From a candidate division WS6 bacterium OLB20 (GTDB taxonomy: Bacteria > Patescibacteriota > Dojkabacteria > B142 > OLB20), in assembly GCA_001567355.1 (NCBI GenBank), contig JYNZ01000001.1, forward strand, positions 5,944-69,943: 64,000 bases of DNA, in the 5' to 3' direction. A model generated the notes under the pieces. It was not told where the DNA came from and searched no databases. It saw only the letters and a program-made list of their open reading frames with translations. Made by a program: the position numbers and the translations under genes. Each line of letters starts with the position of its first letter. Within the stretch, counting starts at the first letter, position 1. This document shows, piece by piece, positions 19,384 to 41,625 of the stretch.

Positions 19384-19413
19384 GGCTGATTATAGCAGTA
19401 TTGCTCCCGAGGT

Positions 19414-19653
19414 CCGACCTCAGGGACACTCCTCAACTACGTATCTTGAGCTGTCGAAAGTGGATTAAATTGCGGTACAAGGATATCCATCAAGAATATG
19501 TGTACAGCGTTGGGCGAAGAATGGACTAATTCAGACCTCTGCAAGCACGATATTGACCGTATTTTGCGTAACAAATGATACGTAATCAGGATTTTGCCCT
19601 TGTGGGTCAATAGGTTTGCGAGTTCTGTAGATAAGATCCGTACCTGAGGTCGG
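19414..19653. repeat. MITE-like element, family 2, copy 1 (about 240 bp with terminal inverted repeats)
   Basis: Begins CCGACCTCAGGGACAC... and ends ...CCTGAGGTCGG (an 11-bp perfect terminal inverted repeat). Its internal sequence is about 80% identical to the copy at 20628. Confidence 0.6.
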
Positions 19654-19665
19654 ATACCGGGTTCG

Positions 19666-20206: not shown

Positions 20207-20623
20207 GTGATATCGAGGAGAGCGAGTATCTCTTTCACGCTGCAGCTGCATCGGGAACGTTTTTTGTTCAGTATCAGAACTGCCGGTGACCGGCCGTGGA
20301 TGATCAATGGAAGGCATCCGGACATGCGCGCCGGCTATATGGTAAGAACAGCGTATACACGGTATTGCGATGAGGGACTGGTGAACAGACTTCAGGGACA
20401 GTGGGTTGATGAAGATGACGGTATGCTGACAAACCTTAACGAATTCAAGACCAATATAGCAGCTGGGATGGATGTTTTAACTGCAGCAGAAAACACCTGG
20501 ACGGGACGCCAGGCATACGAACTGAGGTTGCGGCCGGTTTCTATACTTGAGCTTGAATCAGGTCGTGGTGTTCAGGTTACGTTTAAGCCGGATGTAATGC
20601 TGAAGTACGGCAGAAAAGTCTAA
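20207..20623 (+). CDS. hypothetical protein
   Basis: 138-aa ORF whose stop codon is immediately followed by repeat copy 2. Confidence 0.35.
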   Translation: MISRRASISFTLQLHRERFLFSIRTAGDRPWMINGRHPDMRAGYMVRTAYTRYCDEGLVNRLQGQWVDEDDGMLTNLNEFKTNIAAGMDVLTAAENTWTGRQAYELRLRPVSILELESGRGVQVTFKPDVMLKYGRKV

Positions 20624-20627
20624 GGAT

Positions 20628-20875
20628 CCGACCTCAGGGACACACCTCAACTACAGATCTTGACCTGATAAAAGTGAATTAACCTGTGGTGCTGCGATTT
20701 TCAATGATGTGGTAAGAACCGAGTCTCACGAAGAATGGGCGTATTCAGTACTCAATATAACCAGAACTTGTCGATATCTTGCGTAACATTTGTTACGTAA
20801 TCAAGATTTTGCCCTTGTGACACAGTAGATTTGCGAGGTCTGTAGATAAGGTCTGTAGTTGACGTCCGACATCGG
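20628..20875. repeat. MITE-like element, family 2, copy 2
   Basis: CCGACCTCAGGGACACACCTCAACTACAG...CTGTAGTTGACGTCCGACATCGG. The ends are imperfect inverted repeats of each other. The internal palindrome CGTAACATTTGTTACG is shared with copy 1. Confidence 0.6.
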
Positions 20876-20920
20876 AGACATAATGTCTCTTCATGACCTC
20901 CGAATCCTGGAGTCCGGAGC

Positions 20921-22640: not shown

Positions 22641-24758
22641 TTAGAGCGGATTACTGCGCGAGCGTTTAGTCCGTGCAAACAGAAACAGCAAAAGAAATAT
22701 GGCAGACAGGCTACCGCACAATATACCAAGCAGCACGTGTAATCCCGGCAGTCCTGTTTCATTACCACCATTGTTTGCAATCAGATCTTGTTCTGTCTGG
22801 CTGTCATCGTCCTGTGCTACTGGTGTATCTGTCACCTGGCCCTGTGTAACAGTCGGTCGAAGCGGCTCCGTGTCTTGTGATTCATCATCAGGCATTACTG
22901 TTGCAGTCGGGATCGGACTGCCGTTTTGTGCCGGTCTGTTTGCAGATGATTGTGATGGTGTCACACTCGGGGATGGCGTCGGGCTGGGTGCTCCGATAGC
23001 CGGTTGAGTCGGAGCAACAGTCGTCGGTGAGGGTGTCGGCGTCGGAGTTGGAGTTGCTGTCTGTGTAGCAGTGGGAACAGGTGTTGCTGAAGGGGTCGGC
23101 GTGCCTGTCACTGCTGCAGATGGTGTTACCGTTGGCGTCGCTGTTGCTGTCACCTCCGGCGTTGGTGTCGCAGTCGGCGAAGGTGTCATACTTGGCTCTG
23201 GTGAAGTCTCGGGACTTGGTGTCGGTGACGGTGATTGAGTCGGCGAGGGCGTCACTGTCGGTGTTGTGCTGTTCTCTGCAATGGTAACTGTGCCAACGGG
23301 GTAATAGTTGTCACCGATTGTATTACTCAGATCAAGCTGAATGTTACTACCTGTCCGTCTGTCTTTCATGAATACTGCCAGCTGATACTCACCTGCCGGC
23401 AGGGACAGAGGGACAGACAGATCTGCATCTGTCTGATATTCTGGAGCAGCTGCAGTACTCGGATGAGCAGGCATCCAGGTTTCGATGTCTTCGGCAAGCA
23501 GAGATTCTGTAATCAGGCTGCCGTCTGAGGACAGCAGTCCGGTGTATGCTGCAAAGTTTTGTCCTGTGCGCAGATAGCTTGGTGCAAGTCCGCTGTTATG
23601 CCAGACTGCGCTGACAGAGACTGTTCCACCCTGAGCAACTTCCTGCGAAAACGATCCGCGCTTCACTGTGTAGCGATATCCCAGAGGCTGCATGAGCTGG
23701 CTTATTGTTGCCTTCGGTTCGGCAGATCCGTTTGGATTGTCGTGAACAAGAGATGCATGGGAGAATGCAAGCACATCAGCCACATTCTGTCTGAATGTAG
23801 CGTTGTTCCAGTCGATGGCACAGAGTTCATAGACAACCGGAGCTGCTGCCCAGCGTGTACCAAACGCCTCCTGGATTTCGGGCTGGGTCATATCGGCAGG
23901 TCCTGTCCTGCCCAGACAGTCATGCCTGAATCCGACTGTTGGTGATTTATCAAATGCGTACTTGACAGAATGTCTGATTCCGGCCCAGGGCATAAGCAGT
24001 TGCGTCGAACTGAACCCGGTATGTGAATAGCTCACAGTCACAACCTGTCCTGACTGGTTTTTGCACTGATGGCTGCTGCTTGATCCGCCCAGGAACATGT
24101 CGATCAGCCGCTTTCTGGCATGGCCGTCAAGAGTCGAAGGCGTTGCGGGTGTAGTATCAAACTCGGTAAAGTCATCCTGCCAGCTCCATTCATTAAAGTT
24201 TCCGTACCCGGAGATGTCGATGTAAGCAATATCCGGATTGCCGTCGTAGCGCTGCCTGAGTGCCTGTACCATATCATTCCAGTACTGCTGGTATACGCAA
24301 CTGTGATAGTCGGGCTGGCCGTTGATGATCGGGACTCCTGCCGAGACTGCCCACGAAGGTACCTGATGACCGCCAAATGACTCGCCGCGCATGGTGTAGA
24401 TACGAAACGAAAGCTGTTTGCCCTGCGACCTGGCCTGTGCCAGACGGGTGTCTATCTGGCTGAAATCATATACCCCCTGTGCCGTATTGATTGTCTGCCA
24501 TGAGATATCAGCTCTGTCAGGATACGCCACTGTTTCCGGAAGAATTGATGTATCGGAGCTGTCCATATACTGCCAGCCGATGCCTGGATTGCTTATATAG
24601 CCGCCTCTGGTGGTTACAACCATCTCTCCGGTCAGCGCCTGTGTATCAGAATTCAGAAATCCTGTAGGCAGTAACGATACAATTATAGCACCTGCAGTCA
24701 GCAGAGTCAGTGTGGAAAGCATAAAGATTTTACTTGGTTGTGTAGTAATTCGCTTCAC
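22641..24758 (-). CDS. cell-surface protein: glycoside-hydrolase-like (GH42/DUF4832-like) domain, Pro/Thr/Ser-rich linker and C-terminal transmembrane anchor
   Basis: Signal/transmembrane N-terminus. A TIM-barrel-like region contains WQTINTAQGVYDFSQIDTRLAQARSQGKQLSF. A Pro/Thr/Ser-rich low-complexity tract of about 150 aa follows, then a C-terminal hydrophobic helix and a basic tail RTKRSRS. Confidence 0.55.
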   Translation of the reverse strand: MKRITTQPSKIFMLSTLTLLTAGAIIVSLLPTGFLNSDTQALTGEMVVTTRGGYISNPGIGWQYMDSSDTSILPETVAYPDRADISWQTINTAQGVYDFSQIDTRLAQARSQGKQLSFRIYTMRGESFGGHQVPSWAVSAGVPIINGQPDYHSCVYQQYWNDMVQALRQRYDGNPDIAYIDISGYGNFNEWSWQDDFTEFDTTPATPSTLDGHARKRLIDMFLGGSSSSHQCKNQSGQVVTVSYSHTGFSSTQLLMPWAGIRHSVKYAFDKSPTVGFRHDCLGRTGPADMTQPEIQEAFGTRWAAAPVVYELCAIDWNNATFRQNVADVLAFSHASLVHDNPNGSAEPKATISQLMQPLGYRYTVKRGSFSQEVAQGGTVSVSAVWHNSGLAPSYLRTGQNFAAYTGLLSSDGSLITESLLAEDIETWMPAHPSTAAAPEYQTDADLSVPLSLPAGEYQLAVFMKDRRTGSNIQLDLSNTIGDNYYPVGTVTIAENSTTPTVTPSPTQSPSPTPSPETSPEPSMTPSPTATPTPEVTATATPTVTPSAAVTGTPTPSATPVPTATQTATPTPTPTPSPTTVAPTQPAIGAPSPTPSPSVTPSQSSANRPAQNGSPIPTATVMPDDESQDTEPLRPTVTQGQVTDTPVAQDDDSQTEQDLIANNGGNETGLPGLHVLLGILCGSLSAIFLLLFLFARTKRSRSNPL

Positions 24759-24821
24759 CGGGAAAATTGTTACAGACGTGAAGTATGATTTTAAACAGAA
24801 ATTTCAGCACAGTTTACATCG

Positions 24822-25013
24822 AGACCCACTCTAAAGTACAAGTCTAAAGTATCAGTTTGACGTATTTGCGCTTACAAAGAGGTCTATTTGACCTTAGTAT
24901 CCGGTCATCCTGTAAGTTTCTCCGTTGTTTGTGAAAGGAAAACAGCTGATTTACAGACTCTCCGTTCCAGACCGGTAACCTAGACCTGTACTTTAGAGTG
25001 GGTCTGGTTGCCC
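24822..25013. repeat. MITE-like element, family 1, copy A (25-bp terminal inverted repeats)
   Basis: 5' end AGACCCACTCTAAAGTACAAGTCTA; 3' end TAGACCTGTACTTTAGAGTGGGTCT followed by GGTTGCC. The inverted repeat matches at 24 of 25 positions. Confidence 0.65.
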
Positions 25014-25074
25014 GGGGGCTTTTCGACTGACAGTAAAGAGAATATGATAAGCATATATTATTCTCTCGCTCGCA

Positions 25075-25578
25075 ATGGCAAAACCAACCAGAGATGCACT
25101 GCCGCTGACAATTGCAGTCGCTGTAATCGCCGCTGCAGGAATCGTGCTCGGGTTTATTTTCAATTCACCCGCAACTGCTCTTCTTCTGCTGCTGCCTACT
25201 ATCGCCTACGAAATCTATCGTGTCGAAGGTGACTCAACCAGATACGCTGCCTGGGGTCTGCTGGGTGTTGTGATTGTTGAACTTGCGCTGCTTCTGTTTA
25301 ATGTCACTTTTGACCTGGCATCGTTTTTGAATACTGATTCACAGTACATTCAGGGGTATGAAGTGCCACTGGCAGACATTAAAGTGATAGGACCAATCCT
25401 GCTGGCCATCCTGGCAGTTGTTCTGTTTAAAAATACGCGAGGCAGGTACACTAAAGCACTGTCAGTCGTGATCATTGTTGCAGCGTTTGCGATCGTTTTT
25501 ATGCTCAACCCCGAGATCTTCAATCAGATGCTGCGGGTAGCAGGTCAGGAAGGTGTCCAGCTGTTTAATAATCTCTGA
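25075..25578 (+). CDS. hypothetical integral membrane protein
   Basis: 167 aa with 4-5 hydrophobic helices. Confidence 0.45.
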   Translation: MAKPTRDALPLTIAVAVIAAAGIVLGFIFNSPATALLLLLPTIAYEIYRVEGDSTRYAAWGLLGVVIVELALLLFNVTFDLASFLNTDSQYIQGYEVPLADIKVIGPILLAILAVVLFKNTRGRYTKALSVVIIVAAFAIVFMLNPEIFNQMLRVAGQEGVQLFNNL

Positions 25579-25617
25579 TTCTTCTCAGCATCAGCTGGAT
25601 ATAGAAAAATAGTTCTG

Positions 25618-26631
25618 TTAACTCTCCGGCAGGGTCTGTTGTGTGTATTCGGTTTCAGAGATAAGTCCAAATGCCTCAAGGCCCTCACGCGCAAGATCTT
25701 CGCGAATATTGTAGACAATAAAATACGGTACAAGTTCGCGAAACACATCTTTGTCGCTTGTGATTCTGAAACGCTCTGCTGTCTTCAGATACATTTTGTG
25801 ACCTCGAGCTCTCCTGATAAGCGGAACACTCTTTGTGACATTCTCAGCAAACAGATGGACCGCACTGCCTGCCTGAAACAATGGTATTGCTGTCGCAAAT
25901 GCCAGAAAACTGATTACAGTGAACTGCTGGATCATTGCGCTAAGCACTGCACCTGTAAGAAGTATGAAGAATGCAGTTTTCAACACAGCATCTCTGACTG
26001 TCACCGGATTGAATCGGTAGTAACCGCCTTGTACCAGAGACTCCGAGACGATCCCCGCTGCTGCGCCCGAATAGTCAGTATAGATAAAAGTTTGAATATG
26101 TCTGTTTGGCGAAGTACGGACAGAATGCACACTTCTTGACAGCGTTTCCAGATAGCGGTTAAATCCTCCTGCCTGGACATAGAGTTGTTCAAGTCTGTTT
26201 TCTGTTTCATCTAGCGCTGAGTCAGGATGCAAACGTCTGTAGATAAAGTGTGCTGCAAGATCCTTATTTGTAAGATGTCCATCCATAAGTGCACCAAGCT
26301 GATAAAACCTGGCCTCACCTGTCAGGCGGAATTCGGGTGTAATGACAGTCCTGTTTAATTGCAGATTTCTGTATACAGATCTGGCAGCGATGAGTGCGAT
26401 CAGAACCGCAGAACAGACACCATTGATCAGAACAAGCAGCAACCATTCGGGGCCGGACAACAATGTAACCATGCTCAGCAAAGCACTAAAAATGATTGCA
26501 ACAAACGGGCGCAAGAGAACATGTCTGCCGTTGTATGATCTCAGGAAGAGATTAACAAACGCGCCTGCAAACACTACGGTAATAGCGATAAAAGCTGTCA
26601 CAATCTGGGCTAAAGAGGTCTCGTCTGTCAT
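25618..26631 (-). CDS. hypothetical integral membrane protein
   Basis: 337 aa with multiple transmembrane helices. No motif recognised. Confidence 0.45.
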   Translation of the reverse strand: MTDETSLAQIVTAFIAITVVFAGAFVNLFLRSYNGRHVLLRPFVAIIFSALLSMVTLLSGPEWLLLVLINGVCSAVLIALIAARSVYRNLQLNRTVITPEFRLTGEARFYQLGALMDGHLTNKDLAAHFIYRRLHPDSALDETENRLEQLYVQAGGFNRYLETLSRSVHSVRTSPNRHIQTFIYTDYSGAAAGIVSESLVQGGYYRFNPVTVRDAVLKTAFFILLTGAVLSAMIQQFTVISFLAFATAIPLFQAGSAVHLFAENVTKSVPLIRRARGHKMYLKTAERFRITSDKDVFRELVPYFIVYNIREDLAREGLEAFGLISETEYTQQTLPES

Positions 26632-26728
26632 TCAGAACGAATTCGTCAGGATAACATGATTATGGTACCAGATGCTTCGGCAATCCGCCACCTGGATGAT
26701 ATAATAGATATAGTAGTCAATATTCGCT

Positions 26729-27304
26729 ATGTCCGAGCAACTATGGTCGCCACAACATGACAGTCTGTATCAGCTGTTTCTGCATGACAGAGAAGCGGTT
26801 CCTGCATGGATCAGACTCCTGTCTTCAACACAGAATGCATTCGTAGAGCAGACTGAGAGTCTGGCAGTCATGCCGCTTGGCAGTCTGGATGTCAGCGGTG
26901 TCAATTATTCAGCCGCTGTAGAAGTTCGACATAATCAGATTGGAGTTTTGTCTGAATCTGTTCATCTGCGCCTGCAGCGTGATCAGTTGACGGGTTATGT
27001 GCACTACAGATTCACCCGTTTTCCAGAAGTGGATGACTTTACTGTGTCTGCACACGGCGACGTTGACCGAACTATTGCAATGCTCCGTCATGCAGACCCC
27101 ATGGGATTTGATATGCTGGATATGGAATTTGCAGAGCGGGTATTCCCTGGTATGGCTTCTGCTTTGGGTCTTCCGGTTGAGCATCTTATTGCAACAGGTT
27201 ACATGTGGCTTGATGATCCTGAGCGGTTGAAGCCGATTGAAGCACGTGGCTATGTACCCAGAGATGCTCAGGGTAACCAGTTACACCGACGCGTCTGGAG
27301 GTAA
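26729..27304 (+). CDS. hypothetical protein
   Basis: 191-aa ORF ending a few bases before repeat copy B. Confidence 0.4.
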   Translation: MSEQLWSPQHDSLYQLFLHDREAVPAWIRLLSSTQNAFVEQTESLAVMPLGSLDVSGVNYSAAVEVRHNQIGVLSESVHLRLQRDQLTGYVHYRFTRFPEVDDFTVSAHGDVDRTIAMLRHADPMGFDMLDMEFAERVFPGMASALGLPVEHLIATGYMWLDDPERLKPIEARGYVPRDAQGNQLHRRVWR

Positions 27305-27308
27305 GATT

Positions 27309-27522
27309 TAGACCCGCTCTAAGATTTAGACCAGCTCTAACGTACAAGTCTGAAGTATCAGTCTGGTGTGTTTGTACCTAAAAAGAGGAGTTTGTAGACG
27401 TGCGGACCGGGTCATTTTTTTGCTTTTTCCCCTGTTTCCGTAAGAGAAATACCTGTGATTTATGTTATCACCTGGCCAGACCTGCAGCTCAGACTTGTAC
27501 GTTAGGGCGGGTCTGGTTGCCG
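27309..27522. repeat. MITE-like element, family 1, copy B
   Basis: AGACCCGCTCTAAGATTT-AGACCAGCTCTAACGTACAAGTCTG ... CAGACTTGTACGTTAGGGCGGGTCT followed by GGTTGCC. The 5' inverted-repeat half is partly duplicated. Confidence 0.65.
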
Positions 27523-28187
27523 GCGAGGAATGCTTTTGCGCTGGCCAGAAAGTGCTGCATATCCATATCCGCAATCGTTTCAAACGATCCGTAGTCACGT
27601 GAAGAGATCACGCCAAGCGTCTGTTTAATCTCATGATGGTAGTCTGATTTACCGGCCAGTATTCTGCCGACCACCTGTGTTGCCCCGGGGACGCCCCAGC
27701 AGACAGGCAGCGCCATCGGGTAGCAAACCATCAGCTCGCTGTTTCTGATCTGGCCATGCAGGTTCTGTTCGTACGCGCTGCGTCGTGCCACGACAGCTCC
27801 TGACAGCCATGCCCAGTAGGTATCTGTTGTGATGATTTTGCCAGCTCCTGAGAGCATTCCAAGCAACTGGTTTACATTTTCAGGGTACAGGACACCTTCC
27901 TGTTTTGCTGCATCGGGTGTAAACAGGTGTTCATCCGTGATAATGACCGACCCGGGCTTTAACGCCTGCATCTGGCGTGATTGCGGTCTAGTAAAGCGTT
28001 TGAGAGCAATTGATCCTGACTCGAGGACTGCGCCGTCTGCAACTGCAGCAGCATATTCGTTGCGGTAGTGTTCGACCAGTTCGGGATTGTATTCTGCCAT
28101 CGGACCTTCAGTGTCCTTAAGCAGAAACGGTCCGTGCTGCATCAGGTAGTGATACTCGGCAGGGTTGTGGCCAAACAGGTCAATCAT
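27489..28187 (-). CDS. hypothetical protein
   Basis: 232-aa ORF. Its 3' end overlaps the terminal inverted repeat of repeat copy B. Confidence 0.4.
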   Translation of the reverse strand: MIDLFGHNPAEYHYLMQHGPFLLKDTEGPMAEYNPELVEHYRNEYAAAVADGAVLESGSIALKRFTRPQSRQMQALKPGSVIITDEHLFTPDAAKQEGVLYPENVNQLLGMLSGAGKIITTDTYWAWLSGAVVARRSAYEQNLHGQIRNSELMVCYPMALPVCWGVPGATQVVGRILAGKSDYHHEIKQTLGVISSRDYGSFETIADMDMQHFLASAKAFLAGNQTRPNVQV

Positions 28188-28561
28188 CCAGCCAGGTGGC
28201 TTGAGTAAAAGTGGTACTGCTGTGTCCTGCTTTTGTAGCGCGAATGTGACCTGTCGATTGCTGCTGTGACCGAAAAGATATTTGCGGTACCGTCCGCCTC
28301 GTGCACAAGATGCTGGTTGACCTCCTCGATCTCGGCAAATGTCAGTGGTGTCTCAATACCCATCTGTGCGTGTCTGGCAACTGCCAGTCCGGTTGCAACA
28401 GCTGATCTGATCAGCAGGTTATCCCCGTGTTTTGAATGCGGCTGTCCCTGTGACTGGCCGGAGAATGCAGGTTTGATGGAAATGAAGCCTCCCTGCTCGA
28501 TTGTGGAGAGCAGATCGGTGGTCAGGCTGAGTTGTTCTGGTGTAAATGCACGTTGTTCCAT
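28184..28561 (-). CDS. hypothetical protein
   Basis: 125 aa, overlap-coupled by 4 nt to the downstream gene. Confidence 0.4.
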   Translation of the reverse strand: MEQRAFTPEQLSLTTDLLSTIEQGGFISIKPAFSGQSQGQPHSKHGDNLLIRSAVATGLAVARHAQMGIETPLTFAEIEEVNQHLVHEADGTANIFSVTAAIDRSHSRYKSRTQQYHFYSSHLAG

Positions 28562-28593
28562 GACCTTTTATTATATCATGGGTATTAATCATT

Positions 28594-28784
28594 AGACCCG
28601 TTCTAATGTGCAGGTCTGATGTATCAGTTCAGGGTATTTTTGCCTGCTGACAGGGGGATTTTGACTACCGGAGCGGTCGGTGTTCAGGTTTTCCAGTGGT
28701 TTTATGAGTGGAAATCACAGTTTTTTCGTCAGTTTTGACGAAACCTGCAGGTTAGAGTTGTGGGTTAGAGCGGGTCTAGTTGCT
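28594..28784. repeat. MITE-like element, family 1, copy C (degenerate)
   Basis: AGACCCGTTCTAATGTGCAGGTCTG ... GTTAGAGTTGTGGGTTAGAGCGGGTCT followed by AGTTGCT. The 3' inverted-repeat half is duplicated. Confidence 0.6.
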
Positions 28785-28849
28785 CCCCTGGTAGCTCCAG
28801 TATCTGGCATTTAGCGAATAATTAATGTGTTAGTGATAACATTGTATTT

Positions 28850-29462
28850 ATGCCACTAGTTATCTCTCCAGACGATATCAAAACCCGCATAGAAGGATAC
28901 GATCCCAGACGATCAGAACTGGTTCATCGGCATTCTGTCAGGATCGCAAATAAAAAAATTCTCAGATGCCTTGAAAGACAATGCCTATACGAATGTAATA
29001 CTGCTAGCTTGCGGTGCTGCCTCGGGAAAAAGCGAATATCTCGAATATGCTCTATCAAACGTCAATTCGATCATATATGACAGTACGCTCTCGGCACTCG
29101 ATGCTGCAAAGATCAAGGTTCGCAACTCACTCAAAAAGAAAAAGAACGTAAAACTGGTTTGTGTGATTCCTGATTCGCTGTATCGTTCTTTTCTGGCGTT
29201 CATTAACAGAGAGCGTCAGTACCCGGTCAAGCGTTTCTTTGCTACTCATGCCGGCTGCAGATCGGTCGTGCTGACGTTATTATCCCGCTATCCGGAAATT
29301 GAAATTGAGATTATTGAAAGTTATACTGAAGATAGTAAAATCAGGTTCCGCAGGAAGGAATTTGCAAACAGAATTGAGGTTGCAGACTATTTACAGGGAC
29401 TGCAAATGACTTCAAATCAGATAGAAAAACAGATACAGGAACATATCAGCAATGAAATCTAA
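28850..29462 (+). pseudogene. zeta-toxin-like P-loop kinase, frameshifted at an A7 tract
   Basis: Two ORFs (28850-29080 and 28971-29462) lie in different frames. The second carries Walker A ILLACGAASGKSE. An A7 homopolymer at about 28952-28958 sits at the junction. Confidence 0.45.
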
Positions 29463-29682
29463 AATCGCACAATACAACAAAGCACTGGAAAAGGGACGCT
29501 CTACCAGACATGTGTTTAGCAGAGGAGGCGCCTGGGTTGTTAAGAAAGCGAGTGCTACAAAAGCTTCGCGCGTTGTTGACACTAAAAAGGAAGCTGTTGC
29601 GCTAGCAAGAAAAATGAGCAAACGCACCAATTCGCGTCTGGTGATTCACAGCAAAGACGGGAGGATAGTTAGTGTTGAGTAG
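29452..29682 (+). CDS. DUF2188-family small protein
   Basis: HVFSRGGAWVVKKASATKASRVVDTKKEAVALARKMSKRTNSRLVIHSKDGRI matches the DUF2188 pattern. Confidence 0.55.
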   Translation: MKSKIAQYNKALEKGRSTRHVFSRGGAWVVKKASATKASRVVDTKKEAVALARKMSKRTNSRLVIHSKDGRIVSVE

Positions 29683-29730
29683 GACTGCCGTGTTGCAGAG
29701 ATGCTACTATAAAACAGTTACCCTCCTGAT

Positions 29731-30225
29731 GTGGCGCATGCAAAATACATAGTTGCTGATCTTCTTTCGGTAGATGCCGATGTACTCGTAAATTCTGCCA
29801 ACCGCAGTCTGCTGGCAGGCTCTGGTGTGTGCGGTCAGATATTTACAGTAGCAGGTAAACAACAGCTTGAAGCAGAGTGTCTGAGAATACTACAAGACCG
29901 TGGAGTGAGGTTTCTTGGGGACGGGACATCAGTCATGACCGGCGCATATAACCTGCCGTTTCAGGCAATCATTCATTCGATAACACCCAAGAATCATGTC
30001 GGTGACATCACAAAGGTGTACGACTGCTATCACTCTGCTATGCAACTGGCCATTGCTAACGGATATCAATCGATTGTGTTTCCTTTGCTCGGGACGGGAG
30101 TAAATAACATACCCGCTGAGTATTCAGGGGAACAGGCGATCAGGGCTGTAGATGCTGTTGGTGATATTTTGACAGTGTATTTTTGTTCAAGAGATGCGAG
30201 TCTGGTTGAACTGTTTCGTGGATAG
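29731..30225 (+). CDS. Macro-domain protein (ADP-ribose binding or processing)
   Basis: VNSANRSLLAGSGVCGQI...GTSVMTGAYNLPFQAIIHSITP...SIVFPLLGTGVNNIP are typical macro-domain motifs. Confidence 0.75.
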   Translation: MAHAKYIVADLLSVDADVLVNSANRSLLAGSGVCGQIFTVAGKQQLEAECLRILQDRGVRFLGDGTSVMTGAYNLPFQAIIHSITPKNHVGDITKVYDCYHSAMQLAIANGYQSIVFPLLGTGVNNIPAEYSGEQAIRAVDAVGDILTVYFCSRDASLVELFRG

Positions 30226-30516
30226 AGTCTCGTAGATGCGTGGCAGACAATATACCATCAAACTGCCTTTTTCCCGTTTTGTTATCTGCCTGCGGATCTG
30301 GTCAGCTGACGTCAGTGCTCGACTGCATCCTTGTTAGAGAGTTTACTGCTCGAGCTGGAGAAATCAGCAGGACCAGTATCCCCAGCTACAAGATATGGTC
30401 AGATATACAGTTATCCATGAACAAACATAACATGCTGGAATACTGAAAATGGATACTTTGGCTATGGTGAGGATTTTTCAGTTTCTGGTTGATTTATGCG
30501 GTCTGTAAAACTATAG

Positions 30517-30846
30517 CTAGCTGATCCACCTACCCACCTGATCACAACTCACGACCTTGTCATCCTTATCAAACTCTACAATCCAGGTACCGCCGTCGCC
30601 GGCCAGTGGTCCTGCATGACAGCCAAATTCAATCTGATACCTTTTCTCGGATAACTTATGTGCTTTGATGTAGTGACCGTACACTGCCTCATCGGTGATT
30701 CCGAAGGGTGAGGAGTGTTTGGTGAATAGCTCTTTGATGGATTTACCCTCCTTTAGGTGATCCTGGGCAAGTTGGACGGCAAGGCAGCTGCCTGGAGAGG
30801 CTGCGTTTAAGAAGTTTACTACTTGTTTGTCTGAAAGTTTTGGCAA
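30517..30846 (-). CDS. hypothetical protein
   Basis: 109-aa ORF, last gene of the co-directional cluster and abutting the HAD gene by 1 nt. Confidence 0.4.
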   Translation of the reverse strand: MPKLSDKQVVNFLNAASPGSCLAVQLAQDHLKEGKSIKELFTKHSSPFGITDEAVYGHYIKAHKLSEKRYQIEFGCHAGPLAGDGGTWIVEFDKDDKVVSCDQVGRWIS

Positions 30847-31455
30847 TTAAGTATCTATTCTCTCTGTTACATACGATTTAAATTCATCGAGATTTGTGTA
30901 CAGGAATGCATCAAAGCCAAGTTGCTTTAGTGCTTCGACATTAACCTCATGGTCATCGCTCATCAGGATTTCGTTTGGTTTAAGGTCGAGTCGGCTTGCA
31001 AGTGTTTGAAATATTTGCGGTGAGGGTTTTGTTATCCCTTCTTCATAGGAGGTAACGATGACATCAAAGCTTGCTGACAGGTTGAATCTTTCTTTCAGGC
31101 TTTCAAAGCGGTCGGGGAAGTTGTTAGTGCAAATAGCAGTCTTGATACCTTGATCACGAAGTGTTTCCACAAAACTTACAGTATCCGGATTTGTGTTATA
31201 ACTGCTGATCAATAGTTCTACAAGTTCTTCTCTAGTTGCGTCTATCTCCCAGGTTGAGATTGCATAGTTCCAATACTCCTCACTGCTTATCACCCCACAT
31301 TTGTACCTTTGCATCTCCTCACTCTTAAGGTAGACGTCAACGATGTCCTGTTTTGAAAGCCCATACTTATTGACCAGAGAACTTATGTAGGTTTCTGTAC
31401 CACCTTCAAAATAGACTCCGTCCAGGTCAAATACGACTGCTTTGATTTCGGCCAT
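30847..31455 (-). CDS. HAD-superfamily hydrolase
   Basis: Motif I VVFDLDGV, a cap domain, and motif IV-like LMSDDHEVN. Confidence 0.7.
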   Translation of the reverse strand: MAEIKAVVFDLDGVYFEGGTETYISSLVNKYGLSKQDIVDVYLKSEEMQRYKCGVISSEEYWNYAISTWEIDATREELVELLISSYNTNPDTVSFVETLRDQGIKTAICTNNFPDRFESLKERFNLSASFDVIVTSYEEGITKPSPQIFQTLASRLDLKPNEILMSDDHEVNVEALKQLGFDAFLYTNLDEFKSYVTERIDT

Positions 31456-31463
31456 TAAATTGG

Positions 31464-31841
31464 TTAATTAGATAATATTTCAAGTATCGCTTCGACTTGT
31501 CTTGCGTCAAGCACCATCTCCGGGTACAACCCATGTCGGTACTTTTTGATGATGTGTTGAATCTTTGCAAAAGGGATGGTCTTTGTGTCTTCAGTCTCAG
31601 CAAACTTGATCTGTGAGGTAAAACCGCCTTTCCATGCACCCTTTTCGACTGGGTTACCTGGTTCACCATCAGGTTTTAGTGGTCCTGTGATCTCAAAGGT
31701 GCTTGTGTTGTATAAAAACAAGATGTCGTCTGATTGTATTTTGGAGACGTGACCCCAGAGACCTGGCTCTTCACCAAGGAGCATGCGCTCGTATACTTCT
31801 GGTTTGGTTTTGGCTGTGCAGCGGAAGATGTATCCGGTCAT
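31464..31841 (-). CDS. PUA-like beta-barrel protein (DCD/EVE-type)
   Basis: GYIFRCTAKTKPEVYERMLLG, ILFLYNTSTFEITGP and EKGAWKGG parallel the DCD-domain motifs FGYIFMCN...LFG, LFLYNYST...HGI and AWE. Confidence 0.45.
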   Translation of the reverse strand: MTGYIFRCTAKTKPEVYERMLLGEEPGLWGHVSKIQSDDILFLYNTSTFEITGPLKPDGEPGNPVEKGAWKGGFTSQIKFAETEDTKTIPFAKIQHIIKKYRHGLYPEMVLDARQVEAILEILSN

Positions 31842-32487: not shown

Positions 32488-35400
32488 TCAAAAGAACCTT
32501 GTCAGCTTCTCGAGAATCGTCTCTCTACTCTTGGCACGTTCCTGATTTGGAGTAAAGCGAGACTTGGGTGGCATGACCTTTGTCAGTGCAGTACCTGATG
32601 TCGTTAGACCACCATCACGAAAGGCACTCTCGATGTATTTATACGTTGCCTCTTTGTTCAGGTTTTCTTCGTTAATAATCTGCTCCAGTTCTTCTATCTT
32701 CTTTTTTTCGACATATTTGTGCCACTCGGTGTCAACTGCTGCTTGAGAATCCAGTGACAGAATAAACTGATTGATCAAGTCTTTTTTGTTGCGTAGTTCA
32801 ACACTGGAGTCGATAGCCTTGTTAATGTCCACCAGAATCTCTTTATCTTTGGTATGACTGTCATGATACTGTTTGATCAGCCTTAGAATATAGTCAATGT
32901 TTATTTCGACCTGTTTGATCAGTTCCATCTCAAACACCAGGTCATCATTGATGTTTTCCTTCTCGCCCTTATCTTTGTCGCGGAACTCGTTGTAGAGGTC
33001 GATGTACATGCTGTGATAATCCTGCACGTCCCTTGGTGACAGGATTTCGTTACCTGCAAACTCGTCAAATGTGACAAGAATATTGCGGACACGCAGAATT
33101 TTTCCGTACAGCTTAATAAAGTCCTTCTGGTGTTGTTCACCTTCGATGCGCTCACCAATGGGGTACTCGGCAATAAGCTGTTCGATCAAATCTTTGTAGC
33201 CGGGTACATCCTTGCCTTCATCCGTGTAGCCTTCGTAGTAGTCCTTGTATGGTTTAAGCAGTACGATTCCGCTTGCCTCTTTATCGCCAAACAGGGCGAT
33301 TGCCTCGTTTGTCTTACCCTCCAGATTGCGGAAGCAGACGATATTACCAAATGTTTTTACACTGTTAAGGATGCGGTTGGTGCGTGAGTATGCCTGTAAT
33401 AATCCATGCATGCGCAGGTTTTTATCAACCCACAGCGTGTTAAGAGTTGTGGCGTCAAAGCCTGTTAAAAACATGTTAACAACGATCAGAATATCAACCT
33501 CAGTTTTTTTGACACGTTCGCTGACGTCTTTATAGTAGTTCTGGAACTTATCTGAGGAGGTATCATACGATGTGCCGAACTGATTATTGTAGTCTTTGAT
33601 TGCATTCTCTAAAAAGTCACGTGAGCTGGCATCCAGTCCGCTGGTATCCTCTGAATTTTCATCGATCATACCGTCCAGGTCTTCGTCGTTAACTCCAAAG
33701 CTGTATATCAGGGCAAGTTTGAGCTGTTTGTCGCTGGGTAGACCTTCAAGCTGTCGCTTAAACTCAGCGTAGTACTTTTTGGCTGCATCAATGGAGGATA
33801 CGGCAAAGATTGAGTTAAAGCCTGCCAGTCTGCGATCTTGAATTTTGTAGTAACTGTTGCGTTTGGTCTTTTGATCAAAATGCTCTCGGATGTAGGTAAC
33901 AATATTTGCCAGTCGCTCGGGGGACTCAAGTGCCGCTGCGCGGTCAATGTCGTTTACCTGCTCGTCTTCGATATCTTCTGCCTCGCGCACGGTCGAGACG
34001 TAGTCGACCTTAAAGGGCAACACATTTTTGTCATTGATGGCATCAACGATGGTATAGGTATGCAGTTTGTCTCCAAAAGCCTGCTGCGTAGTTTTAAAGT
34101 CCGGTCTGCCACCTGATGAGGCATTGACTGCAAAAATTGGTGTGCCGGTAAAGCCAAACAGATGGTAGTTGTTAAATGCTTTGGTGATGGCGGCATGCAT
34201 ACTGCCAAACTGTGATCTGTGACATTCGTCAAAAATCAGCACGACATGTCCATCAAACAGTGTGTGCCCACTGTTACGGCTAATAAACCTGTCCAGCTTT
34301 TGAATAGTCGTGATGATAATACGGGCGTTTGGGTCTTCTAGCTGCTTTTTAAGTATCTTTGTTGAGGTATTACTGTTGGCTGCTCCTTCCTCAAATTTGT
34401 CGTATTCCTTCATGGTCTGGTAGTCCAGGTCTTTACGGTCAACGACAAATACGACCTTGTCGACATCAGGCAGTTTGCTGGCAAGCTGAGCTGTTTTAAA
34501 ACTGGTCAGCGTTTTACCAGAACCTGTGGTGTGCCAGATGTAGCCACCTGCCTCGACTGTACCTGTTTTTTTGTAGTTGGTGCTGACCTCGATGCGGTTA
34601 AGGATGCGTTCTGTAGCGACAATCTGATAGGGTCGCATCACCAGAAGCTGCTGTTCGGAGGTAAATACACAGTAACGTGTCAAAATTCGCAGCAGTGAAT
34701 GTTTGGCAAAAAACGTCTTGGCAAAGTCGATCAGGTCAGTAATCGGTTTGTTGGTGGCATCTGCCCACCAGCTTGTGAACTCAAAACTGTTGCTGGTACG
34801 TCTGCCCTTTTTGGCTTTAGCAGAGCTGGTGCTGTCTTTAATGTGCTGCTTGCGGGTGGTGTTACTGTAGTACTTGGTATGTGTACCGTTTGAGATGACA
34901 AATATCTGCACGTACTCAAACAGTCCGGATTCTGCCCAAAAGCTGTCACGCTGGTAGCGGTTGATCTGATTAAATGCCTCCTGGATTGCCACACCTCGGC
35001 GCTTAAGCTCAATATGCACCAGTGGCAGACCGTTTACCAGCACGGTTACATCATAGCGATTGGTATAGTTGCCTTTATCTGTTGAGTACTGATTGATAAC
35101 CTGCAGGGTATTATCATGAATGTTTTCTTTGCTCAGCAGGTAGATGTTTTTACTTGTGCCGTCATCCCGTTTTAGTGTTTTGATGTAGTCCTCCTGGATT
35201 GTGGCAGTTTTTTCGGCAATGCTCTGGTTTGAGTTGGCAATCTCAGTACCAAAAAAGTGCTGCCATTCGTTATCACTAAAGGTGTAATCATTAAGCTTCT
35301 CAAGTTGGGTGCGCAGGTTAGCTTTCAGGTCTTCAGAGGTTGTGATATTTAAGTACTCATAGGCCTGTGACTCTAACTGCTTAATAAATGCTTGCTCCAG

Positions 35401-35508
35401 CTCTGCCTCGCTTTGATAGTGTTCTGCTCTTTTTGTATCACGGGTGTATTCTGCCACAACTGTGCTTTGGTTACTTTCAATGACCAGGTTGTACTTGGGG
35501 TCAGACAT
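32488..35508 (-). CDS. hsdR: Type I restriction enzyme R subunit
   Basis: Helicase motif I HTTGSGKTLTS, motif II LIFDECHRSQFG, and a nuclease region upstream. 1006 aa. Confidence 0.9.
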   Translation of the reverse strand: MSDPKYNLVIESNQSTVVAEYTRDTKRAEHYQSEAELEQAFIKQLESQAYEYLNITTSEDLKANLRTQLEKLNDYTFSDNEWQHFFGTEIANSNQSIAEKTATIQEDYIKTLKRDDGTSKNIYLLSKENIHDNTLQVINQYSTDKGNYTNRYDVTVLVNGLPLVHIELKRRGVAIQEAFNQINRYQRDSFWAESGLFEYVQIFVISNGTHTKYYSNTTRKQHIKDSTSSAKAKKGRRTSNSFEFTSWWADATNKPITDLIDFAKTFFAKHSLLRILTRYCVFTSEQQLLVMRPYQIVATERILNRIEVSTNYKKTGTVEAGGYIWHTTGSGKTLTSFKTAQLASKLPDVDKVVFVVDRKDLDYQTMKEYDKFEEGAANSNTSTKILKKQLEDPNARIIITTIQKLDRFISRNSGHTLFDGHVVLIFDECHRSQFGSMHAAITKAFNNYHLFGFTGTPIFAVNASSGGRPDFKTTQQAFGDKLHTYTIVDAINDKNVLPFKVDYVSTVREAEDIEDEQVNDIDRAAALESPERLANIVTYIREHFDQKTKRNSYYKIQDRRLAGFNSIFAVSSIDAAKKYYAEFKRQLEGLPSDKQLKLALIYSFGVNDEDLDGMIDENSEDTSGLDASSRDFLENAIKDYNNQFGTSYDTSSDKFQNYYKDVSERVKKTEVDILIVVNMFLTGFDATTLNTLWVDKNLRMHGLLQAYSRTNRILNSVKTFGNIVCFRNLEGKTNEAIALFGDKEASGIVLLKPYKDYYEGYTDEGKDVPGYKDLIEQLIAEYPIGERIEGEQHQKDFIKLYGKILRVRNILVTFDEFAGNEILSPRDVQDYHSMYIDLYNEFRDKDKGEKENINDDLVFEMELIKQVEINIDYILRLIKQYHDSHTKDKEILVDINKAIDSSVELRNKKDLINQFILSLDSQAAVDTEWHKYVEKKKIEELEQIINEENLNKEATYKYIESAFRDGGLTTSGTALTKVMPPKSRFTPNQERAKSRETILEKLTRFF

Positions 35509-35534
35509 CAGTATGGCGTGTAAGTGTTAAATAA

Positions 35535-36768
35535 TCATGAAGTCTTGAGTTCTTTAAAGGTAAGCAGTTTGTTGCGGTAGTACTCGTATTGTTTGCGCCG
35601 AGCGTTGAGCTCGGCAGGGAGACCGACGGTTAAATCGGTAGTTAATCTATTGAAACGATCCAATACATCAACTATTTTTTCTTGTTCTTCTTTTGTTGGA
35701 ATGGGAATTTTGGCTTTTCCAATCCATTTTGAATGTATTGATGAGATCTTTGCCGTTCGTATATGTCTCCTTATCTGCATGCGAAACTTTTTTCGTTTGT
35801 AAGAAGTACGATACGTATTTCGGATTTAGTTTATGTGTAAAAATGAAGCAAGCATCATGAACAACTATATCCTGCTCACCAAGCCAAGCAACTCCACCAC
35901 CAATGTCCTCAATTGTCTCGCCAGCTGCGACAATCACAACATCACCGTGCTTTGCAACACGAAGCCTGTTTGCTAGAGTCTCGGGTAGAAAAGAGATTGC
36001 ATCAGTTGCCCATGCACCATAGTGTGTGTACATTTCCCCATAATGAATACATGGTTGTCCTGTATCGACGATGTCGTCCTTTACAAATCTCTTGCCACGA
36101 GTAAACATACCTACTTCATCGAGTGGTTTACATGGTGACTTTTCAAGTACGTACAAATCTTCTAAGAAATACTCATACTGCTTCCTCCTCGCCTCCAGCT
36201 CTGCCTCCAGCTCTGCCTCCAATTGTGTGAACTTGTCGAGGATGCTGACAATCTCCTGCTGGACTGCGAGGGGTGGGAGGGGGATTTTGAAGCTTCTAAT
36301 CATCTCCAGATTTAATCCTCCCCTTGTACCATCACCCGAGGAGATGGTCCGAAGCTGTTGGTACTGGGTAGATAAGAAGTGATAAAGAAAATCACTATCA
36401 AGTCTTTCGTTAGGAATGATTGAGCAGAGAGACTGATTTGTACATAATTCAATTCGTGTTCTAGCGACAAGTCCTCTTGTCTTGCCCTGTCCTGCAAGCG
36501 CAATCACTACAGTGTAAGGAGGCACTAGTTTTGTACTACATGAATCATATCCTACTTGTGTGATTTTTTTGTCGGTTTCAAATATCGTTTTCTTATTAAC
36601 TTCTCCTGAACTCATCCAAGGAATTGTTCCGTTCTCCCAGAATTCTGTCACCTTTGATCTAGGAGTTGCACCTGCTAAGCATTCGGCAACTTCTTCAATG
36701 AATACAAATTCGACTCCTTCAGGGCATTTCTCGGCAATCAATTGTTCGAGTTTGGATTGGTGGTTCAT
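35535..36768 (-). pseudogene. hsdS: Type I restriction-modification specificity subunit, frameshifted near the C-terminal conserved region
   Basis: The 366-aa ORF holds target-recognition domain 1, the central conserved region IPLPPLAVQQEIVSILDKFTQLEAEL and target-recognition domain 2. The C-terminal conserved region (IPIPTKEEQEKIVDVLDRFNRL) is in another frame, in an 81-aa ORF. A T6 run at about 35788-35793 lies in the junction zone. Confidence 0.75.
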
Positions 36769-37289
36769 GGTGTAATCTGTTCAATAATTGTGTCAAATTC
36801 GATTGGCTCTTGGTATTGTCTCCCAGCGGGAAGAATAACTTTGAATGCAAATTGATAGTTAAGTCTCTCGTCATTTATATATGCTTGTAACTTTTCACTA
36901 TCATCAATAGTAGAGCTGGATTTCTTAGCTTCGATTACTGCTAGGTTGTTACTTGTTCCGCGATGGTGAATAATAATATCAGGGTATACAGACACACCGC
37001 CGTCCAAAATGTCTTGTAGAAACTTTCTTCGTTTATCTGTTGGCGCTGATTCTAATTTGCTAAGTACTTCTTCTTGCTTTTCACTCCACAGTTGCACTAA
37101 CTTACCCTCACCTAAGGTTCTGTTATATTCGCAATCTACATTCCAGTCTGGAAGCAATTGTTGCAAATACTCTGCAAGTTTATGAGTGATGCTGCGTTCA
37201 CTAGCATCTACCTGTAGTAGAAGACCGTCTCGAGCTAGAAGCGTTTGGTATGCAGTAATGATTTTTGCTTTTAATGGGTCAGCAGTCAT
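36765..37289 (-). CDS. hypothetical PD-(D/E)xK nuclease-fold protein
   Basis: VYPDIIIHH...LAVIEAKK gives the hhhD...ExK spacing. It lies between the ATPase gene and hsdS on the same strand with 1-4 nt gaps. Confidence 0.4.
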   Translation of the reverse strand: MTADPLKAKIITAYQTLLARDGLLLQVDASERSITHKLAEYLQQLLPDWNVDCEYNRTLGEGKLVQLWSEKQEEVLSKLESAPTDKRRKFLQDILDGGVSVYPDIIIHHRGTSNNLAVIEAKKSSSTIDDSEKLQAYINDERLNYQFAFKVILPAGRQYQEPIEFDTIIEQITP

Positions 37290-37290
37290 G

Positions 37291-39875
37291 TTAGTTTAGA
37301 TTTAATTTCTGCATTCGTTTCTTCAGTGCAGCATCTCCACCTTCAAGAATATTCACCATGTCATCTTGTATTTGCTTCAGTTCAATTCCTCCGTTGTGAT
37401 ACTTGAGGGTATTGTTTTCGTTTTCTGCAACTATCACATTTTCCGAATCAGTCAGGAGTAGTAGGTTAGCGCTATGTGTAGCCACAATCACTTGACGTTT
37501 TTCCTTTTGAGTTAGTAGAAGCCTTCTTAGGTCATTTGAAATACCAGAGACATCAATATCATTCTCTGGCTGGTCAATAATTATCGGATATCTACTTTTT
37601 GACAGATTGAAGACAAGATCTAAAAGTGCCATTGCTTTTTGTCCACCAGTCATGTTTTCAAAATCTATCAATTCTTCTCCCTGCTGATATTTCACAGATT
37701 TTGTGAAATCGATATCGTATCTGCAGCTCAACAACGTCACTAACGCGCTTTCTATATCACCACCTGTTGTCTTCAACCTTGCCTTATCTGAACCAGTAAT
37801 AACGTCCTCAATAATCTGAATCAGCTCGTCCTTTCGAAAATCTCGTTTCTCATCAATAAACTTTCTGAAACGTTCCCCAGATCTTCCGTCAATGAATACA
37901 TCAAAGAAAGTACGTTTATAATCATCTACACCGTAACTAACCGTAAAATCAAATGTTATAAAAGCGAATTCATCAAATGCATTTTTGAGTGTTTCAACTA
38001 TTCCATCGATTTTTTTCTCAAAAGATAGGTATAAATCCGCCGTTTCAGTAATTATTTTATTCAGCTCAAGAGTTGATTTATTGATAAATTTTTCCAGTTT
38101 CTCTATTTCTTTTCTCTCTTCAATTAATATGTTTATTTCCTTTAGAATCTTCTCAATGGTTGTATTTTGTTGTAATTTCGATGTTATCGGGATTAGCTTT
38201 CTTTTCTAAGATGTCTTTCTTTTCTTTTTTTGGCTTGAGTCTCAGTCATTAGTTCTGCAAATAGAGAGTTCAGATAGACCTTAATTTCTTGATTAGATAG
38301 TTTCTCAATCTGTTTTTCAATTAACTCTAGCGTTGTATGAGATAATCCAGAGAACGCTTCGTCGTCAACTGTAATGAAACTCATCTCTTCTCTGCTATTT
38401 ATGTTCGCAATAATTCTAATATCTTGCTCTAACAATTTTATCTCTTTGCTAAGAGATTCTATCTCTGAAGAATATTCTGTTTGATTTTTGATATCCTCAT
38501 CACTTATCGCGACCTTACCAAGCTTATTAATTTCTTCTTGCTTAAGCTTTATTGCTTCTTCTTTATCTATTACTTTTCCAAGAGGTTTTAATTGACGAGT
38601 GGTGTCAACAATCTGTTTTTGCATACTTAAAGCCTCCTTTAGTTTTGCATGAATTTTAAGTTCTATTGAGTTAACCATCTCGGATTTACTTACATCTGCA
38701 TTCTTGAATATCTCGTTATTGAAGAGGCGATCCCTAAGTAACTGATCTCGCTTATCGTATTCCCTACCATCTTCATAGGTGATAGTTGATAGGTAGTTCT
38801 GAGGTATATACTCAACATATTTATTTTCGGAACTATTGTCAGACCATTGAATCGCAAAGTCTTTCAATTTGTGAATTTCTTTAACATCGGGTTGTACTTG
38901 TTCACGAAGCACGTCGTAAGCAATATGTTTAAGTAACACGGACTTACCTGCACCACGTTTCCCAATAACAGAATTCATATCCCTGTTAAAGTACAACGTG
39001 CGGGTTTCGCCATCTTGGTTGTACTCTATTTTGTTGATAAATAGTTCAGGAGATGAGTTTTTGCTTTCAGATGGAGCTCTATCTTGTATCAACACTCTGT
39101 TTTTATAGTCAACAACGGCTTGTCTCAGTGTCTCAAAGCAAGAATCTCCTTTTACCCATGTAAATTTCTTTCCAATTTGATCTAAACTGTGAGCGTCACT
39201 ACTTTGGAATATAGCTTTGGTGGTTAGTGGCTTTTCTACGTCTTCTCCTGTCCAGAATTTTATGTCGTCACTTATGTTTGCAACCTTGTTTGAAGAGTGA
39301 ATGACAAAATCAGAGTCTTTAGTGAGCGATTCATACATTATTGAACTTCTGGAATTCCCTTTGCCTCTGGACAACATTCCAACAAGTACCTTACCTCTAA
39401 GATTAGAAAGTGCATCATCACCTAACGTATTAGTCACATCTTTAAACTCAACTACAGCAATCTTTTTCTCATCTATTGATGTAGCTGCACTGAGCATTTT
39501 ATGACTGCCTGAAACAGAGCAGTTTAACTTTGTAAGAAAAGGGTCAATATCTTGCTTAGTCAATTCATTCGAAAAAACAAGATGGAGATCACAGCAATCA
39601 TCCTCTTTATTCGTATAAGTAAGCCGGAGCTCTAAGTTTAAGAAAACTACAATGCCAACTTTTTCAAGTTTATCTTTCAAACCCCAATCGTCGTCACTAA
39701 AATTGAAGTAGTTAGTTAGACCAACTACTTCTAAATTCTCGTCTTTGATTTTCTGTACATATTCATCCATAGATGAAGATGAAAAAGCATTCTCTAGTGA
39801 AGTATGGAACGAATGTAAGTGTAAATCCCACTTTTTCCATTCTGAACCTCGATTGATTTTTTTGTCGCTTTCCAT
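37291..39875 (-). pseudogene. PHP-domain plus ABC/SMC-like ATPase (Ppl-like defense protein), single frameshift at an A7 tract
   Basis: N-terminal PHP motifs WDLHLHS, CDLHLVF and SSDAHS. Walker A GKRGAGKS, then a long coiled coil. The reading frame stays open across 38193-38205 in a second frame, which continues to the ABC signature MTGGQKA, Walker B IIIDQPENDID and H-loop VATHS. The A7 tract is at about 38225-38231. Confidence 0.6.
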
Positions 39876-39876
39876 A

Positions 39877-41456: not shown

Positions 41457-41625
41457 AGTTCTTCTGATTAATATTAAACTTGTTGCGACCGATATTCGAT
41501 CCAGAATAAAATAATGATGCACAATCACTATTTACGGTTATCATTTTTCCCATGAAGATGTCTGGACTACTTCTGTTTTGATTATACATCCAGTAAGTGA
41601 ACTAAATAACCCTCAAATATTGCTG

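Follow-up and report, generated by a model that had tools for sequence, protein, structure and literature searches.

A family of MITE-like palindromic intergenic repeats, new in sequence, between small gene modules of the candidate division WS6 bacterium OLB20

Palindromic repeats that resemble miniature inverted-repeat transposable elements (MITEs) occur in several bacterial groups, such as ERIC/IRU in enterobacteria, Correia/NEMIS and NIME/dRS3 in Neisseria and YPAL in Yersinia. Repeats of the ERIC/Correia type are 100-300 bp long, non-coding and intergenic, often touch the ends of genes and form a long hairpin from their terminal inverted repeats. They contain no internal transposase, and pairs of copies can flank genes as borders for recombination or mobilisation. 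In the bacteria of the Candidate Phyla Radiation, whose genomes are tiny, the gain and loss of accessory genes is little understood. We analysed a 64-kb stretch (the window) of a 71,887-bp contig of OLB20, a member of this radiation (candidate division WS6, Dojkabacteria), and describe in it a repeat family, here called family 1. The family is real and new as a sequence, and its general kind, MITE-like palindromic intergenic repeats, is a known one. Its three copies lie in the same orientation, as the original prediction had reported and as both reading of positions 24600-29000 and a repeat finder confirmed. Their parts are the following.

24822-25012, + strand: copy A, recovered by repeat search, arm and tail matches and covariance model; it lies between the starts of a DUF4832 gene (- strand) and a 167-aa gene (+ strand)
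24822-24845 and 24982-25005, + strand: arms of copy A, complementary at 23/24 positions
25006-25012, + strand: tail of copy A, GGTTGCC
27302-27521, + strand: copy B, including a duplication at its left end; its start is otherwise put at 27310 or 27328
27302-27319 and 27320-27337, + strand: 18-bp tandem duplication at the left end of copy B (repeat-finder family D6)
27328-27351 and 27491-27514, + strand: arms of copy B, 22/24 positions matching
27515-27521, + strand: tail of copy B
28594-28784, + strand: copy C, recovered by repeat search, tail match and covariance model; it lies between the start of a 125-aa gene (- strand) and a frameshifted zeta-toxin-like gene (+ strand)
28594-28617 and 28754-28777, + strand: arms of copy C, with a DNA identity of 17/24
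28778-28784, + strand: tail of copy C, AGTTGCT

The elements are 191-212 nt long. Each is closed by an inverted repeat that is near perfect over 24 nt and imperfect up to about 40 nt per arm (in copy A the extension runs inward to 24859 and 24968), around a variable central core of about 105 nt that is not palindromic. The inverted repeat and the GGTTGCC tail are those described before, with arms that can now be extended to about 40 nt. When the 24-mer consensus arm AGACCCGCTCTAACGTACAAGTCT was searched in the window, five arms were found at no more than 3 mismatches, as compared to 0.00 expected from shuffles, and the sixth, the left arm of copy C, was recovered by the repeat finder and the covariance model. 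The right end followed by GGTTGCC gave 3 matches (0 expected). A covariance model built from the three copies matched only these three in the whole window, and nhmmer profiles agreed. All arms are built of tandem 13-nt sub-repeats with the core TACANNTCT. The conserved tail stands on one side only, 3' of the right arm, which makes the element asymmetric; both arms and the tail are retained in all three copies. Between copies A and B, similarity continues for about 30 nt beyond GGTTGCC. There is no conserved reading frame, and indels of 1-2 nt in the core break the frame, for which reason a small open reading frame (ORF) within the element was dropped as a candidate.

Some details of the earlier description had to be adjusted. 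The internal boxes said to be shared, AAGTATCAGTYTG and AAAGAGG, are present in copies A and B, and copy C has ATGTATCAGTTCA and GACAGGG instead. The partial arm duplication claimed for copy B is a real 18-bp tandem copy; that claimed for copy C, GTTAGAG, is the 13-nt sub-repeat found in all copies. The left end of copy B begins at the stop codon of a 191-aa gene, and the final 11 codons and the stop of a 232-aa ORF on the - strand fall in its right arm.

The copies have diverged strongly, with overall identities of 70% (A-B), 63% (B-C) and 59% (A-C). This divergence is uneven: between copies the 24-nt arms are 79-88% identical, as compared to 33-66% for segments of the core. Within copies A and B, left and right arm agree at 23/24 and 22/24 positions and so are more alike than arms of the same side in different elements (20-21/24). 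In copy C, all five transition differences between the arms (5/5) yield G-T or G-U pairs on the + strand. In the consensus structure 88% of the cells pair. Pairs changed on both sides number 9, against 5.0 ± 1.6 in shuffles (9/500 shuffles reach 9), and the covariation score is 0.317, against 0.218 in shuffles (0/500 reach 0.317) and 0.07-0.11 in slid controls. Since this analysis rests on three sequences only, it is supportive rather than conclusive evidence that the complementarity of the arms has been maintained through changes on both sides.

With the ERIC/Correia type, as these repeats are generally known, family 1 shares its size, non-coding nature, terminal inverted repeats and intergenic placement. 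It differs in that its copies are few, clustered, one-directional and 59-70% identical rather than near-identical, and in the 13-nt tandem sub-repeats of its arms and its one-sided tail. No sequence homology with ERIC, REP or BIME was detected: sensitive blastn of copy A, run on 5,426 complete genomes of E. coli, returned nothing at E <= 0.01. The suggestion that the elements could be MITEs was borne out as regards terminal inverted repeats, small size and lack of coding capacity: family 1 does show terminal inverted repeats on a short non-coding element, the mark of a MITE. As regards target-site duplications it was not, and none was seen by inspection at any copy. The flanks read ...ACATCG / GGTTGCCCGG for A, ...AGATTT / GGTTGCCGGC for B and ...TCATT / AGTTGCTCCC for C.

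The reading that we prefer, to which we give somewhat less than an even chance, is that family 1 consists of lineage-specific MITE-like repeats which act as hairpins at the DNA level, are recognised in trans and serve as portable recombination borders of accessory modules. The functional form would be a hairpin or cruciform site in DNA, and a transposase or recombinase encoded outside the window may recognise it in trans. The copies would have spread locally, and as direct repeats they would provide portable sites of recombination or homology for the gain and loss of the modules that they bracket. The absence of target-site duplications, the clustering, the direct orientation, the better conservation of arms than core and the bracketing of modules leave room for a role in site-specific recombination.

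Several observations weigh against this preferred reading. No direct repeat is found at the flanks under any choice of boundaries; short target-site duplications of old insertions could have been lost. The three copies in 64 kb all lie within 4 kb and in one orientation, with none in the other 60 kb, whereas classical MITEs are dispersed and randomly oriented. Among the ORFs tested across the window (those shorter than about 150 aa were only partly covered), no integrase, recombinase or transposase was recognised by Pfam, NCBIfam, PADLOC or PHROGs matches, and no autonomous element or transposase with the same ends was found. The strong divergence of the copies means that any movement would be ancient. 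As no relative was found in any collection, mobility, an empty site or variation in copy number cannot be demonstrated. Finally, the maintained complementarity of the arms could be due to selection for the hairpin or to hairpin-templated correction of quasi-palindromes, and the compensatory changes may reflect such repair instead of selection.

The search for relatives covered pattern scans, blastn and the covariance model. The pattern scans used only positions invariant in all three copies and required an exact match at 19-27 positions; for the 19-base right-end pattern a few chance matches were expected in the genome collection, which excludes OLB20 itself. The left pattern had no match in genome and viral contigs, and a looser version of it none in metagenomes. 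The right pattern had none in metagenome and viral contigs, and its one match in genome contigs was rejected as chance: it falls in a GC-rich coding sequence of Oscillochloris and lacks a left arm. In viral contigs neither a two-arm gapped pattern nor the patterns for a second repeat family described below (two patterns) gave any match. Sensitive blastn against plasmids, phages and E. coli genomes yielded no relative. The absence of relatives is to be read as none found at the sensitivity of these scans.

Near relatives of the host provided little further comparison. The DUF4832 protein that flanks copy A has its best homologue in OLB21, at only 54% identity, and it follows that no close relative of OLB20 has been sampled. 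The gene order ATP synthase - P-type ATPase - DnaJ - DUF4832 is retained in OLB21 (JYPD01000030.1, compared with window positions 5-25 kb). With the covariance model, no copy was found in this syntenic locus, in a second DUF4832 locus or in the contigs on which the 337-aa protein encoded between copies A and B has its two homologues; nor were long inverted-repeat elements seen in the OLB21 locus (L004), the second DUF4832 locus (L005) or a further locus (L008). The OLB20 locus itself is present in contigs of three Sequence Read Archive (SRA) runs, two of them 100% identical to the window and the third with the same gene order. The repeat array is identical in the NCBI record and in the contigs recovered from SRA. 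As the contigs found through the window proteins are all identical to the window, there are no empty sites or variants among those sampled. A literature search on OLB20, on integrons in Patescibacteria and on MITEs in the Candidate Phyla Radiation returned nothing relevant.

Self-comparison of the whole window revealed two more sets of elements, families 2 and 3.

19406-19661, + strand: family 2 copy a, with 35-nt inverted arms TCCGACCTCAGG...CCTGAGGTCGGA and a 186-nt core; fold z -3.8
20620-20878, + strand: family 2 copy b, 1214 bp downstream of copy a in direct orientation and 73% identical to it; fold z -1.6
about 52279-52556 and 57266-57570, direct orientation: family 3, a weak pair with a shared 40-nt left end

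Family 2 has the same build as family 1 with a different sequence, 5 kb away. Copy a is situated between dprA and a module of small ORFs, copy b begins at the stop codon of a + strand ORF, and the pair encloses a 960-bp module of small unannotated ORFs just beyond dprA. The right arm of copy b contains the tandem 13-nt units GGTCTGTAGATAA and GGTCTGTAGTTGA. Compared with OLB21, OLB20 has about 5 kb between DnaJ and DUF4832, which include dprA, the family 2 repeats and their module. Family 3 is less well defined: its copies have in common only the 40-nt left end and a terminal inverted repeat of 9-13 bp, and they are not significant hairpins. The left end, CCGAGAAACGTTCAAA..TACACTTCT..TACACTTCT, is 88% identical between the copies and 63% identical, in register, to the left arm of copy A. 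The copies start 6-8 nt past a stop codon and enclose a FecR-CHASE2-adenylate/guanylate cyclase operon.

The arms of all the families contain tandem 13-nt units with the core TACANNTCT. When profiles of the family 1 arms were used as queries, ends of families 2 and 3 were among the best non-self matches, in register, each of them non-significant alone (E 0.8-8.6). Along the window the elements follow each other as two of family 2, three of family 1 and two of family 3, all direct; families are contiguous in only 6/210 possible orderings. The left ends of 4/7 elements lie 0-8 nt past a stop codon. The other long intergenic gaps of the window hold no such repeats. Two or three hairpin repeat families that bracket orphan modules by a defence island thus offer a concrete locus for the question of repeat-guided module exchange. 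If they are only decayed MITE-like elements, the case is an ordinary one, that of one more lineage-specific repeat family.

The modules enclosed by family 1 are as follows.

25075-27304, mixed strands: module 1, between copies A and B, with a 167-aa membrane protein (+), a 337-aa membrane protein (-) and a 191-aa protein (+)
27489-28561, - strand: module 2, between copies B and C, with 125-aa and 232-aa ORFs that overlap by ATGA

The placement of the copies between small modules of hypothetical and membrane proteins, noted in the original prediction, holds. The module 1 proteins have no match in Pfam, PADLOC or PHROGs. The 337-aa protein has two homologues only (47% and 37% identity), neither adjoining an element, and the 191-aa protein is an orphan. 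For the 232-aa protein no homologue was found among 5.8 billion proteins and the predicted structure is uninformative (pLDDT 33); searches of the PDB with the sequences of the 232-aa and 191-aa proteins returned nothing useful. To judge by these searches, the family 1 module proteins checked are orphans or nearly so, and the others lack a family match. The modules measure 1-2.3 kb and have the same GC content as the host, unlike the low-GC type I restriction-modification island to the right. Copy C, which had been said to abut the start of the restriction-modification island, is 3.7 kb away from hsdR (32488), and the drop in GC begins near 30 kb.

The original prediction also likened the ends of the elements to the attC sites of integrons. 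An attC site is an imperfect hairpin whose R and L boxes are separated by an unpaired central spacer and which has extrahelical bases on one arm, and an integron cassette is usually one promoterless ORF that faces its attC; in CALIN arrays a nearby IntI is not required. Family 1 is like attC and CALIN in that imperfect hairpins of the same orientation separate short cassettes of mostly orphan genes and keep structure over sequence, and the motifs CTCTAAC and GTTAGRG of copy B resemble R boxes. The resemblance fails, however, on four counts: the triplet, the spacer and bulges, the integrase, and the modules of several genes in mixed orientation. The AAC/GTT triplet is described as the one stretch that all attC sites have conserved (PMC5027507). 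At this position copy A reads CTCTAAA / TTTAGAG and the left arm of copy C reads TTCTAAT, and AAC/GTT is found on both arms only in copy B; across copies the position covaries as A-T, C-G and T-G. The lower 24 bp of the stem are continuously paired (1 mismatch in A, 2 in B), with no bulged bases or unpaired spacer, and the would-be R box is set 8 bp into the stem, the eight bases outside it being paired as well. No IntI or Phage_integrase domain was detected among the ORFs tested in the 64 kb. In contrast to attC cassettes, module 1 has three ORFs (+, -, +) and module 2 has two on the opposite strand, and the length of the elements, 191-212 nt, is a further difference.

A broader form of this idea, that the elements are structure-specific recombination sites of an integron-like cassette system other than IntI, left as an array without integrase as in CALIN, survives best among the alternatives, and we still consider it doubtful. 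A module would have its hairpin as att site, and the cutting and joining would fall to a recombinase encoded elsewhere in the genome. This reading would account for the direct orientation, for same-family copies bracketing 1-2.3 kb orphan or near-orphan modules beside a defence island, for structure conserved above sequence and for an asymmetric element with its tail on one side only; the four left ends just past stop codons and the lack of target-site duplications fit as well. Moreover, of the transitions between the 24-nt arms 6/7 yield G-T pairs on the + strand (one-sided p of about 0.06), a bias that folding of a single DNA strand would produce. Besides the unconserved triplet, the stem lacking spacer and extrahelical bases and the length of the elements, it is opposed by modules of 2-3 genes in mixed orientation, by the lack of any tyrosine or serine recombinase domain among the window ORFs tested and by the lack of presence/absence variation among the sampled contigs. 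In a more specific version, unlikely in our view, a cassette system of WS6/Dojkabacteria, unknown to date, would use hairpins with 13-nt sub-repeats as att sites for a recombinase unrelated to IntI. If this were true, small orphan or defence-linked modules would be stockpiled and exchanged, and the Candidate Phyla Radiation would possess a functional analogue of the integron.

Another known arrangement is that of pdif (XerC/D) modules of Acinetobacter plasmids and of composite units bounded by MITEs, in which 1-3 genes lie between short alternating sites. Here, too, a module has the right arm of one copy on one side and the left arm of the following copy on the other, and these two arms are mutually inverted. 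The arms differ in that they are not 28-bp XerC/D sites, and no Xer-type recombinase was found among the window ORFs tested, nor any plasmid context or evidence of module movement.

It was also proposed that the elements are a structured RNA, and the folding data bear on this. The + strand is the more stable one in copy B (-78.5 vs. -66.8 kcal/mol for the - strand) and in copy C (-81.2 vs. -52.0 kcal/mol). This raw difference arises because the + strand is rich in G+T (up to 65%, in C); relative to dinucleotide shuffles of each strand, z-scores are alike, from -5.7 to -7.6 for the + strand and from -5.0 to -6.7 for the - strand, a result that suggests a palindrome symmetric at the DNA level and not one RNA strand. 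When the 24-nt arms are taken away, 136-139 nt of stem extension and core are left, with z from +0.3 to -1.1 in A and B, and of -2.6 and -3.1 in C. The element minus its arms is therefore barely more structured than shuffles, with most z near -1. Of the transition differences in the 24-nt arms 6/7, and with the extended stem about 10/14, give G-T or G-U pairs on the + strand, a bias that is suggestive, not significant (one-sided p of about 0.06-0.09).

That the copies are paralogous structured RNAs of the + strand, either small RNAs or cis hairpins processed by RNase III that uncouple neighbouring transcripts, is in our judgement improbable. The more stable + strand of B and C with its many G-U pairs, the covariation in the long stem and in two inner helices, and covariance-model scores of 192-206 bits on the + strand as compared to 12-53 on the - strand speak for it; as the + strand had served to build the model, the bias in these scores is partly circular. 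The specific support that an RNA should have is lacking. A search of Rfam (Rfam 15) gave no match at the gathering threshold over the window, nor up to E = 10 over 24700-28900, and the z-scores of the two strands are similar, with values of the armless element between +0.3 and -3.1. No promoter-like or terminator-like signals accompany the copies, which occupy divergent (A, C) and convergent (B) intergenic gaps without a consistent relation to genes, so that neither an RNA gene nor a cis-regulatory RNA is favoured. Nothing similar is present at the syntenic OLB21 locus. The 6S, SRP and Y RNAs were dropped as candidates for want of any Rfam signal, and an outward-facing promoter within the element for want of a consistent -35/-10 pair.

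A local duplication, without function, of a palindrome between genes, now in decay, is, we think, distinctly improbable. It would fit the clustering of the known copies, their high divergence and the failure to find relatives. The outcome that had been named as favouring local duplication was in part observed, since no further copies were found where searched and flanking duplications are missing; arm complementarity and the existence of a second family oppose it. Conservation is far higher in the arms than in the core, the arms have kept their pairing, no copy has lost an arm or the tail, and the independent family has the same design. As the intervening sequences show no relationship to one another, a segmental duplication is excluded.

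Scars of serial island integration at one attachment site (att-cargo-att-cargo-att), for which every incoming island would have brought its own copy of the target sequence, are very improbable. Direct repeats do lie between stretches of unrelated cargo next to a low-GC type I restriction-modification island, but the window has no tRNA or tmRNA gene and, among the ORFs tested, no integrase, the modules of 1-2.3 kb have host GC, each of the three copies has its full length and both arms, which partial att duplications would not, and similarity along the copies has no mosaic pattern.

Other candidates were set aside. For a diversity-generating retroelement or retron there is no reverse transcriptase, and the copies are intergenic; for an IS200/IS605-type or REP element the flanks lack a conserved tetranucleotide, and 110 nt separate the arms. 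A tRNA or tmRNA integration target was dropped, as the window has no such gene.

The surroundings of the repeats gave some additional observations. Directly right of copy C, at 28850-29462, lies a zeta-toxin-like P-loop gene in two frames that overlap (28850-29080 and 28971-29462); a pseudogene with a frameshift or a sequencing error is the probable cause. Between copy C and the restriction-modification system, at 29452-31841, is a cluster of small defence-flavoured genes that encode a DUF2188 protein matching the PADLOC candidate PDC-S16, a Macro domain protein, a HAD hydrolase and a Dev_Cell_Death (DCD) protein; DCD is known mainly as a plant domain. The type I restriction-modification island (32488-41528) has low GC (35-44%) and is interrupted: between hsdS (35668-36768) and hsdM (40242-41528) are genes for a 571-aa protein with ABC-ATPase/PHP/STAND-like matches and a 161-aa AAA_21/SMC-like fragment. 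The hsdM ORF stops after profile position 219 of 311 and may be truncated.

Within the DUF4832 gene, at 23022-23259, there is a degenerate repeat with a period of 6-18 nt (GTCGGNGTTG...), which corresponds to a low-complexity linker of the protein (repeat-finder families D1 and D3) and has no relation to the hairpin elements. Near the left end of the window (1266-4684), a 760-aa ORF represents an HMG-CoA reductase fused to an archaeal-type HMG-CoA synthase and is followed by an archaeal-type thiolase. The fusion ORF adjoins a bacterial F-type ATP synthase operon. The genes belong to the mevalonate pathway, here in a member of the Candidate Phyla Radiation.

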